From: Flavobacteriales bacterium
GTDB taxonomy: Bacteria > Bacteroidota > Bacteroidia > NS11-12g > UBA955
Assembly: GCA_947496375.1 (NCBI GenBank)
Contig: CANMCY010000002.1
Coordinates: 53,082 to 117,081, forward strand
DNA: 64,000 nt
Direction of reading: 5' to 3'
A program made the position numbers and the translations under genes. The stretch's first letter is position 1; every line of letters starts with the position of its first letter. Of this stretch, positions 9,334 to 11,605 are shown piece after piece. The notes beneath the pieces were generated by a model that was given only the letters and a program-made list of their open reading frames with translations, did not search any database and was not told the DNA's origin.

Positions 9334-9874
9334 GCTGTTAATCGTTATTCCAAATGTATGCCAAAAAAAGTATTTTGTAGAGAAGCAAGAGAGGAACACT
9401 AAAGGTTTTAGGCAAATCTGATTGCGAAAAATAATGCATAATTAGCAAAACACATACATAAATACGGGTTGTTTTTTTGTGTGAATTAACACTGACGGCT
9501 ATTTGAGATATGCTTAGACCGCAGAAGGCACGTCATTATTGAATGAAAGCCGATTCATATTCATGAAAGCATTGTATATCAATGTTTTTGCAGTTTGTCA
9601 GCTCCCATATTTATAAAGGAACGCGTACGCACGCGCTACGCATTAATGTAAGGCAAAGTTACTAAATAAACAAATTTTTTTGAAAAATTTTTTGTGAACG
9701 ACTGTGCATAAACAACGGGGCAAAATAATCGTGAAATAGTGGCAATAAAATTTGGATTTTTGGAGATTGTATATTATATTTGTTGTTCATCCCTTTTCCA
9801 ACTTAACGCTAAAACAAAAAACACCACAAAAGTGGCTCCCTCCCCCTTTGTGCTTAAAAAAGAAAAATAATATC

Positions 9875-11605
9875 ATGAAAAATAAAAAACCTTCCCATTC
9901 TTCTGCCATTGAGAGCGCTTTGCGTTCGGCGTATCTGGAAATTCAATCAACCTGCATGGTTGGCAGGGCCTGGAATGACATGCCTGCACTCTCAGGGCTA
10001 TCCAACAAGATCCGGCTGGCCCTGGAAGAGGTTGCGGTGGTTGCCGTTGTGTTTGTGCGGGGTGAAGAGGTATTGAACGTTGGGGAAAAGTTCTGCACGC
10101 AGCTGTTGCAAAATCACTGCAACACCAATGGCAACCGTTTGCGCACCGTATTGAGGCGGCTGTGTGCTACGGGGGTGCTGGACATCAACCGAGACCGTGA
10201 AACCGGCTGTGCGTCTTATTGCCTTAGTAACGAGACCGAACGCGCCATTGACGAAGATGATGCCGATGGTTTCAAAGGTGCGGCCCCTCAGGGTCTGGAT
10301 GCCACCCTGCAATTTGTCAGCCGCCGTTTACTGGACCGCGACCACATGCTGGCCAAGCACGTGGGAGAACAAATTGAACTGGCCAAGCGCCACAACAAAG
10401 ACCTGTTACTGATAAAATACATCGAAGATAAGATGATGTTTTGCGGTATTGAGGAGTGGTTTACCCTGCTGGCCATTTGCACCAAGGCCGCCATTGAAAA
10501 TGAGCCCTTCAATTTTGTGTACCTGGATAATTATATCCATATCTGCCGTTCAGACATACAGCGCCTGAGACAGGAAATCCTGGAAGGAACCTGGCAGCCC
10601 ATTCAGGAGGGACTGGTGGAAATAACCGGTTCTAATGTGGTGGAGTTTAACCCGGACCTGCAACTCACAGAGGCCGGTTTTGAGCATTTTCTGGGCGAAC
10701 TGGATCCCGTATTCCTGAAAATGATTCGCCGCAAAATGGCATCGGTGCGCACCCCCATGATACAGCCCGAACAGGTGAGTAAAGTAAACTTGTACTTTAG
10801 CCCTGAGCTGCAGCGCAAAACCGAGCGCCTCACCCGCCTGTTAACGGTGGATGGTTTCAGAAACTATCAAAGCAGCATGTCCAAGACTGACCGTATGCGG
10901 GGTATTACCCTATTGTTTCACGGGGGGCCCGGCTGCGGCAAAACCGAGTTTGCATTGCAATTGTCGCGCATCACCAAAAGGCCTGTAATGAAAATACAGG
11001 TTACCGATTTCATGAGCAAATGGGTGGGCGATTCCGAAGCCAACCTTAAACGGGTATTTTCAGATTACCGCCGGGTTTGGGAGCGCATGGAAGTGCAACC
11101 CATCCTGTTTTTGAACGAATGCGATCAGATTATCGGCCGTCGCCTGAATGCACAGAGTGGGGTGGAGCAAATGCAAAACGGATTGCAGAATCTGGTGCTG
11201 GAGGAAATGGAAACCTTCGGAGGCATATTGATTGGCACCACCAACCTCACCCAAAACATGGATCCGGCATTCGAAAGGCGCTGGACCATCAAACTGCAGT
11301 TTGACCCACCCAATACGCAGGCAGTAGCGGCTATCTGGAAGAGCCAGATTAAGGGATTGCGCCAAACTGAGGCGGAATTGCTGGCCAATGCATTTGCATT
11401 AACCCCGGGTGAAATCTCCAATATAGCGCGGCGTTTTGCCGCCGAGAAACTGCTGGGTCTGGAGGACACGCGGTTAAATACGCTCATGGCGTTGTGCGAA
11501 ACCGAGCGCTACCACAATGTAAAGGCATCAGGTGTTCCCCTGGGTTTCCGGGTGCCCGGGCGGCAGGAGATGGACATGCAAAAGGATAGAAGGAAAGCAG
11601 GTTAA
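9875..11605 (+). CDS. AAA+ family ATPase with large N-terminal domain of unknown function
   Basis: C-terminal classic AAA module with Walker A GGPGCGKT, Walker B ILFLNECD and second region of homology GTTNLTQNMDPAFERRW. The N-terminal ~390 aa are unassigned. ATG at 9875 (MKNKKPS) follows a ~470 bp AT-rich intergenic region. Confidence 0.75.
   Translation: MKNKKPSHSSAIESALRSAYLEIQSTCMVGRAWNDMPALSGLSNKIRLALEEVAVVAVVFVRGEEVLNVGEKFCTQLLQNHCNTNGNRLRTVLRRLCATGVLDINRDRETGCASYCLSNETERAIDEDDADGFKGAAPQGLDATLQFVSRRLLDRDHMLAKHVGEQIELAKRHNKDLLLIKYIEDKMMFCGIEEWFTLLAICTKAAIENEPFNFVYLDNYIHICRSDIQRLRQEILEGTWQPIQEGLVEITGSNVVEFNPDLQLTEAGFEHFLGELDPVFLKMIRRKMASVRTPMIQPEQVSKVNLYFSPELQRKTERLTRLLTVDGFRNYQSSMSKTDRMRGITLLFHGGPGCGKTEFALQLSRITKRPVMKIQVTDFMSKWVGDSEANLKRVFSDYRRVWERMEVQPILFLNECDQIIGRRLNAQSGVEQMQNGLQNLVLEEMETFGGILIGTTNLTQNMDPAFERRWTIKLQFDPPNTQAVAAIWKSQIKGLRQTEAELLANAFALTPGEISNIARRFAAEKLLGLEDTRLNTLMALCETERYHNVKASGVPLGFRVPGRQEMDMQKDRRKAG

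Follow-up and report, generated by a model that had tools for sequence, protein, structure and literature searches.

A tandem-winged-helix AAA+ ATPase gene in the window

The 64,000-nucleotide (nt) stretch of a Flavobacteriales contig analyzed here, referred to as the window, carries on its + strand a gene for a 576-residue AAA+ ATPase. The protein contains two winged-helix (WH) modules, a classic AAA module and a flexible C-terminal tail; it is an ordinary kind of machine that belongs to an undescribed family and occurs here in an orphaned yet still-selected state. The reading frame is free of stops from 9752 to 11605. Since the N-terminus (MKNKK or MNNK) is common to the relatives and the segment 9752-9875 has indels between loci, the true start was placed at ATG 9875 (MKNKK...). 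The alternative start TTG 9752 was rejected, as 9752-9875 is a conserved promoter and 5' untranslated region (UTR) with indels between relatives. Public gene calls of 612 amino acids (aa) that begin 36 codons earlier (window 9767-9874), inside this promoter and 5'UTR, probably have mis-annotated starts. Homologues align along the full length of the ATPase with 38-99% identity, and 34 diverse full-length homologues (37-72% identity) were used for a family alignment. The gene and its product have the following features.

9875-11605, + strand: coding sequence (CDS) of the tandem-winged-helix AAA+ ATPase, stop codon included (from the open reading frame (ORF) list, the homologues and the ratio of non-synonymous to synonymous divergence, dN/dS)
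aa 11-25: N-terminal helix (AlphaFold2 models)
9983-10225, + strand, aa ~37-117: WH1, first winged-helix module, with a recognition-type helix at aa 89-99 and near-invariant R90
10229-10300, + strand, aa 119-142: acidic/Gly linker AIDE(N)D...GPxGL(E/D), with near-invariant D126, P138, G140 and L141
10406-10666, + strand, aa ~178-264: WH2, second winged-helix module, acidic, with invariant F212, W240, P242 and G252
10760-11509, + strand, aa 296-545: AAA module of the classic clade (PF00004; best PDB matches VAT/p97 D2, Rix7 and Vps4)
10922-10948, + strand, aa 350-358: Walker A GGPGCGKTE, with G350, P352, G353, G355, K356 and T357 invariant
11015-11038, + strand: pore loop 1 SKWVGDSE (aromatic-hydrophobic-Gly), with K382, W383 and G385 invariant; aligns with the p97/VAT pore loop
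11099-11128, + strand, aa 409-418: Walker B PILFLNECDQ, in which Asn-Glu replaces Asp-Glu
11234-11284, + strand, aa 454-470: second region of homology GTTNLTQNMDPAFERRW, with sensor-1 N457 (TTN457) and the arginine pair R468 R469 (ERR) invariant
11510-11602, + strand, aa 546-576: flexible C-terminal tail, holding L556 G557 F558 (11540-11548)

The architecture WH1-WH2-AAA-tail is that of an unnamed family of narrow distribution, which occurs chiefly in Bacteroidota and also on plasmids of Campylobacterota. The window protein aligns with these members over its full length (37-72% identity) and shares their WH1-WH2-AAA-[ILV]GF order and the Asn-Glu Walker B motif. Public names of the members are "hypothetical protein", "ATP-binding protein", "AAA family ATPase" or a generic COG label; the JGI name 'SpoVK/Ycf46/Vps4 family' is such a generic label only. 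A literature search found no description of a WH-WH-AAA family or of a pairing between AAA and DUF2779 proteins. Family homologues were also absent from the phage collections searched, in which annotated phages gave no match and viral contigs gave generic AAA-core matches only (22-35% identity); a phage origin of the ATPase was rejected on these grounds. Neither a CbbX/CfxQ nor a SpoVK model, either of which might have given the protein a known identity, was among the 18 NCBIfam matches at E <= 1.

A classic AAA module with an Asn-Glu Walker B motif

The Pfam AAA model (PF00004) matched aa 346-477 with an E-value of 3.6e-21 and 76.4 bits against a gathering threshold of 21.2. A preliminary description of this DNA, made from the letters alone, had called the gene a stand-alone classic AAA ATPase, and this stood: all three motifs quoted for it are present, and the gene is monocistronic (see below). 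Pore loop 1 reads K-W-[VIL]-G throughout the family and K382-W383-V384-G385 in the window protein. Within Walker B, N414 and E415 are invariant in 34/34 aligned members and are also found in the gut relatives. N414 takes the place of the Walker B Asp in the alignment with VAT, the catalytic Glu being kept and the Mg-coordinating Asp being changed to Asn family-wide. The best sequence match of the module is VAT (5vc7, E 2e-23), and its Foldseek neighbours are p97, Cdc48, Rix7, Rpt, Msp1 and Vps4, all threading unfoldases. With Walker A, the KWVG loop, sensor 1 and the arginine pair intact, the module is predicted to be of the classic, substrate-threading kind; from the homology to p97, Vps4 and Msp1, we infer a hexameric ring and ATP-driven translocation.

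The four elements are common to the window protein and to Cdc48/p97/VAT D2, Rix7, Vps4/CdvC and Msp1. The window ERR can be likened to the RRR of Vps4, and the single-ring type I layout is that of Vps4 and Msp1. The N-domain, in contrast, is a tandem WH and not the double-psi barrel, MIT domain or transmembrane (TM) helix found in p97/VAT, Vps4 and Msp1. The family differs further from the classic unfoldases in its Asn-Glu Walker B, its [ILV]GF tail, its bacterial range and its linkage to WYL and DUF2779 genes. When compared with the CdvC/Vps4 model NF041006, the protein scored 59 bits against a cut-off of 650, the match covered the AAA core only, and the N-region is not MIT. Because the N-domain is different and the NCBIfam scores lie far below the cut-offs, the window protein is placed outside the orthologous groups of p97/VAT-D2, Vps4 and Msp1, yet by analogy it would work like them.

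The N-region is predicted to contain two winged-helix modules

About 390 N-terminal residues had been described as an unassigned domain. No Pfam, NCBIfam or PADLOC model matched aa 1-327, in agreement with that view, but the models put the beginning of the AAA module at about aa 296, leaving an N-region of about 295 aa, and they give it a fold. The AlphaFold2 models agree with each other (pLDDT, the per-residue confidence score, 83.5 for aa 1-300 and 83.0 for the whole protein) and show two divergent MarR-like winged-helix modules, each a helical bundle with a β-hairpin. WH1 has an isoelectric point (pI) of 8-10 (basic) in most family members and of 7.8 in the window protein, and WH2 is acidic (pI 4.8). 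The region does contain Cys and His residues, as had been noted (9 Cys and 7 His), but C202 alone is nearly invariant, and therefore no conserved metal-binding motif is present.

An exhaustive phmmer search with aa 1-300 against 1.84 billion cluster representatives (E <= 1e-3) returned 23 clusters, all of them proteins of 540-580 aa or fragments of such proteins. At sequence level, the tandem-WH region is therefore limited to the WH1-WH2-AAA architecture. Comparison by hhalign of the N-domain with the WYL or DUF2779 partners, and of WH1 with WH2, gave probabilities below 1%. The MarR family has the fold of the N-domain in common with it; membership was not borne out, neither by a MarR/HTH_27 profile match nor by the dimeric stand-alone form of ~150 aa. 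MarR-family and other tandem-WH proteins (ScpB, YceH/UPF0502) are 6-20% identical, with no Pfam MarR/HTH match, and in contrast to ScpB, YceH/UPF0502 and MarR, the window modules are fused to an AAA motor and their DNA binding is putative.

The family is repeatedly linked to WYL regulators and DUF2779 nucleases

About 115 related loci (numbered with the prefix L) were subjected to unbiased neighbour clustering, and profile hidden Markov models (HMMs) were made with hmmbuild from the recurrent neighbour families. The loci fall into four groups. In clade (a), with at least 67% identity (the window, L001-L010, L020 and L021), the gene order is MFS - SDR - DUF2452 - type IX secretion system (T9SS) plug <-> ATPase; the downstream side varies, and the ATPase and the four upstream genes are syntenic down to 67% identity. 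The sister clade (b), with about 50-61% identity (L022, L023, L035 and L038), has housekeeping neighbours (porin, 5'-nucleotidase and ABC permease). No housekeeping neighbourhood is conserved across Bacteroidota, synteny being confined to close relatives.

Group (c) consists of freshwater Bacteroidota with 37-47% identity. Here a DUF2779 protein of ~685 aa is encoded at nearly every locus with usable flank. Its gene lies directly downstream of the ATPase stop or overlaps it in nine loci (L017, L019, L025-L030 and L033) and is nearby in L012, L018, L032 and L034. A WYL protein of ~328 aa is encoded divergently ~220 nt upstream of the ATPase or directly downstream of it; the WYL gene adjoins the ATPase in L012, L019, L026-L029, L032, L034, L036 and L113-L115. 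The freshwater WYL-ATPase spacer contains a conserved operator-like palindrome, ATAATTATGCAATATT-AAAATTGCAACTATGCA(A/T)TTTTT, that is, TGCAAT-N6-ATTGCA (L026:9704-9925, L028, L029, L032, L019 at ~6790-6830, and upstream of the ATPase in L012 and L034). It is probably the site of the WYL regulator, and it is not present in the window. Three of the loci (L017, L019 and L115) also encode an OGG-like glycosylase-family protein. Within L115, two ~570-aa AAA (PF00004) genes lie 1.3 kb apart on opposite strands (2543-4246 on + and 5527-7254 on -), with the OGG-like gene between them and a WYL gene upstream.

Group (d) comprises gut, rumen and termite relatives with 30-38% identity, in which clustering found a second WYL family, with a WCX domain, in 14 loci. 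Genes for a HAD_SAK_2 phosphatase (immediately downstream of the ATPase), a PLD-type nuclease, a DnaQ-like exonuclease, GmrSD/DUF262 and tyrosine integrases also recur as neighbours. In one subclade, an ORF of 66-74 aa with two TM segments abuts the ATPase start, and DUF2779 is present as well. Such two-TM ORFs abut or overlap the ATPase start in rumen and gut loci L013:8997-9224, L014:9593-9817 and L015:1081-1305, and also in L077, L082, L084, L089, L090 and L098; the product could be a membrane effector or anchor. The order in Segatella copri DSM 18205 is ATPase - HAD - ... - WYL - DUF262, with the second WYL family. On the Aliarcobacter cibarius plasmid pACIB, a second-family WYL gene lies upstream of the ATPase and a PD-(D/E)XK nuclease gene downstream. 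A distant member in L116 (2619-6586) comes right after a 7-deazaguanine/pterin-type set of genes, namely transaldolase-like, PTPS (QueD-like) and GTP cyclohydrolase I, and is followed by genes for a glycosyltransferase and an asparagine synthase; WYL and DUF2779 genes are both lacking there.

A repeated genetic partnership of the family with a winged helix-turn-helix (wHTH)-WYL(-WCX) regulator and a DUF2779 nuclease was thus shown in most other lineages. Regulators of the wHTH-WYL-WCX type sense single-stranded DNA (ssDNA) (PMC11662680, PMC9186387), and DUF2779 is a nuclease fusion, predicted to combine a Cas4-like PD-(D/E)XK domain with a DEDDh exonuclease (PMC13621843, PMC3985635). PADLOC on the partner proteins gave generic WYL matches and a marginal Cas4 match only, and no system-specific model. 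Most family members resemble the WYL operons (CapW-CBASS, BrxR-BREX, DriD and PafBC regulons) in having a wHTH-WYL(-WCX) gene divergent from or adjacent to them. Unlike those operons, the WH-WH-AAA and DUF2779 cargo is undescribed as a system, and the window copy lacks a WYL gene and has another control region.

The preliminary description had pointed to defence or protein quality control and had asked for a conserved partner gene. Both ideas fit the family, most other members of which lie beside WYL regulators and nucleases and often beside GmrSD/DUF262, integrases or on plasmids; for the window copy, no partner is found within its 64 kb, and a defence role is therefore not borne out. One form of the defence idea is a solo anti-phage ATPase of the IetA/IteA kind, which would sense infection and act itself or activate an unlinked effector. 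The best PADLOC match is indeed IetA (PDLC02196, 75 bits) and the best NCBIfam match IteA (NF042959, 64 bits), both from the IetAS system and with a single AAA domain of the same clade, and gut Bacteroidales and plasmid members adjoin GmrSD/DUF262, PLD nuclease, integrase, HipA and Sir2 genes, making conflict with mobile DNA plausible for the family. However, the matches are limited to the generic AAA core (aa 328-537), the IteA score compares with a cut-off of 510 and covers profile positions 111-297 of 367, and the N-terminus differs. Nor is an IetS subtilase gene adjacent: no neighbour contains a peptidase_S8 domain, and none is among the recurrent neighbour families. Identity with IetA/IteA was rejected for these reasons. 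The window gene is, moreover, inherited vertically in a syntenic housekeeping context with no variable island, and homologues were lacking in the phage collections. We regard a solo anti-phage role as unlikely.

Probable partner loss and purifying selection in the window lineage

HMMs for DUF2779, both WYL families, PLD, HAD_SAK, the DnaQ-like exonuclease and the small TM protein found nothing in the 64-kb window at E <= 1, and tblastn with DUF2779 gave no match there. A 697-aa ORF at 17677-19770 on the - strand, 6 kb downstream, was considered as a DUF2779 partner and rejected; it is UvrB. In a midpoint-rooted neighbour-joining tree without support values, the window clade and its sister clade lie inside the freshwater group, all other branches of which carry WYL and/or DUF2779. 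In the sister locus L035, whose ATPase is 55% identical to that of the window, a 112-codon ORF over the ATPase stop (L035:1196-1531) is what is left of a DUF2779 gene after an internal deletion: HMM positions 2-78 and 651-673 are matched (E 1e-40), the first ~78 aa being fused to the final ~23 aa. This remnant appears to be a snapshot of partner loss. Because the window clade is nested among partner-linked clades and because of the DUF2779 ghost in L035, the parsimonious account is that the partners were lost on the way to the window's lineage.

The ATPase gene itself is kept. In comparisons with five relatives, the whole gene gave dN/dS values of 0.08-0.14 and the N-domain by itself gave about 0.1-0.19, with similar values for the AAA half; synonymous sites are saturated (dS 1.5-2.4). 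The 576-codon frame is intact, and all family hallmarks including the LGF tail are present. Since dN/dS is low and the hallmarks are kept, the window orphan is under purifying selection and is not decaying. A decaying relic of a lost WYL-AAA-DUF2779 module, to which the lost partners and the ghost in the sister lineage might point, is hardly credible: the frame is complete, the catalytic and family motifs are all invariant, the promoter and UTR are conserved (see below), and a dN/dS of ~0.1 in both halves, at saturated dS, contradicts it. Acquisition of the gene, raised in the preliminary description, is likewise improbable in view of the same dN/dS, the synteny with four upstream genes down to 67% identity and a GC content of 52% for the CDS against a window mean of 47.2%.

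A short hydrophobic motif in the C-terminal tail

G557 and F558 of the [ILV]GF motif are invariant in the 34-member alignment. The motif lies about ten residues past the last AAA helix, several members terminate exactly at IGF, and the tail is modelled with low confidence (pLDDT < 50 at aa 556-559). The IGF loop of ClpX is established as the element that docks ClpX onto ClpP. The loops of ClpX and ClpA (IGF/IGL) and the HbYX tails of proteasomal ATPases are similar in placing a short hydrophobic-Gly-aromatic motif on a flexible AAA+ element. The window motif differs from those of ClpX/ClpA in being C-terminal and not an internal loop, and no peptidase is linked to it, and docking by it is hypothetical.

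This likeness raises the alternative of a housekeeping proteostasis unfoldase that feeds a peptidase such as ClpP, with [ILV]GF as the docking loop and the WH modules as substrate or adaptor receptors. An invariant motif in a flexible tail after the AAA small subdomain and a module of the threading type would fit such a role, and LGF is kept in the partner-less window clade, so that its target need not be DUF2779. Against this, no peptidase gene is linked in ~115 loci, the genes conserved beside the ATPase encode a transcription regulator and nucleases, and a motif of three residues is weak. We consider a ClpP-type role distinctly improbable.

A private control region upstream of the gene

The spacer between the ATPase ATG and the ATG of the divergent plug gene (9333) is 541 nt long. 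Its leader part (9400-9874) has 33.5% GC against 47.2% for the window, which places it among the lowest 2% of 475-nt windows. The long AT-rich leader with homopolymer runs and palindromes noted earlier is therefore real, A/T runs and a near-palindrome of the AAAAATTTTTT type being present at 9669-9693. Its regulatory appearance was also borne out: the promoter, the UTR and an upstream block are far better conserved than the saturated synonymous sites. The features around the gene are listed below.

8047-9333, - strand: gene for a T9SS-plug-domain protein, divergent upstream neighbour, most likely start ATG 9333
9612-9700, no strand assigned: upstream block, 64-84% identity against 35-52% for the flanking spacer in distant relatives
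9751-9782, + strand: candidate Bacteroidota-type promoter, with -33 TTTG at 9751-9754, a 20-nt spacer and -7 TATATTTG at 9775-9782
9786-9874, + strand: 5'UTR, ~85 nt conserved, 73-98% nt identity despite saturated dS
9824-9835, + strand: mini-hairpin CCAC-AAAA-GTGG, invariant; the UTR also has a C-rich tract and, just ahead of the ATG, an A-rich run
11617-11641, + strand: terminator-like hairpin and T-run between the convergent genes
11668-11955, - strand: 95-aa lipoprotein-like ORF, convergent downstream neighbour

The consensus of Bacteroidota promoters is -33 TTTG / -7 TAnnTTTG. Both boxes of the candidate promoter are invariant in 7-11 relatives, and the transcription start site is predicted from sequence. 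RNAalifold on 11 UTR sequences gave -5 kcal/mol with one compensatory pair. As the UTR is almost without covariation, it is the primary sequence that is conserved and not a fold, and a structured riboswitch-like element found no support. Rfam at a permissive E-value over 9000-12200 gave no match in the leader. Small ORFs in the leader were rejected as non-coding, because both strands yield "conserved" peptides whose aa identity does not exceed the nt identity and because they overlap the predicted promoter.

The upstream block is made up of an alternating purine-pyrimidine GC tract (9621-9642), followed by CATTAAT...GTTACTAAATAAACAAATTTTT and the A/T near-palindrome; its AT-rich motifs are invariant. 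The sequence of the GC core (ACGCGTACGCACGCGC-TACGCA) differs between relatives, with strict purine-pyrimidine alternation kept, and the tract is predicted to be prone to Z-DNA or cruciform formation. Similar (CG)n tracts occur in the leader of the sister locus L022 (50% identity; ~3430-3520). The UTR and upstream-block motifs each occur once in the 64-kb window, with no further copies as a regulon signal. From these sequence features, the window gene has evidently been rewired to a private, lineage-specific control region.

Common control of the two divergent genes would make the ATPase a T9SS-linked factor, co-regulated with the plug gene via the 541-nt region. Plug and ATPase are divergent neighbours in all window-clade loci with upstream sequence, the spacer between them has conserved blocks, and T9SS cargo genes lie downstream. 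The pairing is confined, however, to the one clade of >= 67% identity with its four syntenic upstream genes and looks like inherited order; in the sister clade (L022/L023) and in all the others, the neighbours are unrelated. The plug gene has, in addition, a -7-type box of its own, TACATTTG, at 9351-9358 on the minus strand, 18 nt upstream of its ATG and right beside it. It therefore needs little of the spacer, of which ~350 nt (9400-9745) have no obvious owner. A T9SS link is thus very improbable.

The two flanking genes had been described beforehand as a secreted DUF protein and a small lipoprotein, and they proved to be the T9SS-plug-domain gene and the 95-aa lipoprotein-like ORF. As the upstream gene is divergent and the downstream gene convergent with a hairpin between, the ATPase gene is monocistronic. 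Rfam matches at 11606-11667 (Termite-leu, 28.9 bits against a gathering threshold of 51, STnc430 and PrrB_RsmZ) are all sub-threshold and lie on the terminator-like hairpin; most likely they reflect chance similarity to a GC hairpin with a T-run. Further downstream, at 14124-15835 on the - strand, lies a gene pair whose products are a lipoprotein-like protein of 206 aa and a protein of 366 aa that has a thiol-activated-cytolysin (CDC) domain; the pair is kept in the neighbourhoods of several relatives (L002, L007 and L017). To our knowledge, CDC-like proteins of Bacteroidota have been little studied.

Discussion

We propose that the window protein is a substrate-threading unfoldase that once powered an undescribed nuclease module under WYL control and is now decoupled from it in the window lineage, a reading to which we give about an even chance. 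The ATPase would form a hexameric ring, its WH domains would recruit the ring to nucleic acid or to a nucleic-acid-bound protein, and ATP would drive the passage of a polypeptide through the pore. By its [ILV]GF tail, the ring may dock onto a partner, namely the nuclease if present and otherwise another protein. Ancestrally, the ATPase would have been the motor in a module that was under WYL control, was induced by ssDNA or DNA damage, and handled damaged or foreign DNA; this module might clear or process protein-DNA substrates for the nuclease, or serve as a defence system. In the window genome, the motor would be decoupled, rewired to another control region, and working alone or with unlinked partners.

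Several points weigh against this proposal. The window copy is partner-free within 64 kb, and what is deduced from the module may not apply to it. Association with the partners is only partial in the gut clade, because many loci there have none of them even though their flanks exceed 9 kb on either side. The nesting of the window clade comes from a tree of the simple kind described above. The Walker B Asn could make for a slow or switch-like ATPase rather than processive threading. The whole N-domain of the window protein is mildly acidic (pI 5.6), which leaves nucleic-acid binding uncertain, and the WH modules may bind protein only. Docking by the tail is deduced from a three-residue motif.

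A more specific version is possible but clearly more doubtful. It holds that an ssDNA-sensing WYL regulator, the WH-WH-AAA unfoldase and the Cas4-like/DEDDh DUF2779 nuclease form a three-part system on Bacteroidota and Campylobacterota replicons, joined in some lineages by an OGG-like glycosylase, a HAD_SAK phosphatase, a PLD nuclease or a small two-TM protein. Such a system might strip proteins off damaged or foreign DNA for the nuclease, as a bacterial counterpart of p97-assisted extraction of DNA-protein crosslinks and chromatin, or might be a new defence against mobile elements; the window copy would then be a domesticated orphan motor with a private control region that includes a Z-DNA-prone element. 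Two conceptual analogues come to mind. Archaeal Cdc48a works with a RecJ3/4-aRNase J nuclease complex (PMC10470531), a classic AAA unfoldase with nucleases in DNA-damage survival, the partners not being homologous to those described here. Eukaryotic p97 extracts proteins from chromatin and DNA-protein crosslinks, and no ubiquitin-like modifier is evident for the window family.

The classic AAA unfoldases have been well characterised; apart from FtsH, bacteria have few of them, mostly with obscure roles. The family described here combines, in an architecture open to testing, a tandem winged-helix receptor with a threading motor whose Walker B is Asn-Glu and with a tail of the docking type. For the window, the annotation is improved over "hypothetical protein" or "ATP-binding protein", and the locus can be regarded as a natural experiment in which a motor survives alone under purifying selection with its control region rebuilt. 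The DUF2779 nuclease is widespread, uncharacterised, and quasi-essential in the minimal Mycoplasma cell, and its partnership with WYL and the ATPase is a concrete lead to its function. Should the module turn out to serve in DNA damage or defence, it would bring in a combination of unfoldase and nuclease that none of the named bacterial systems has.

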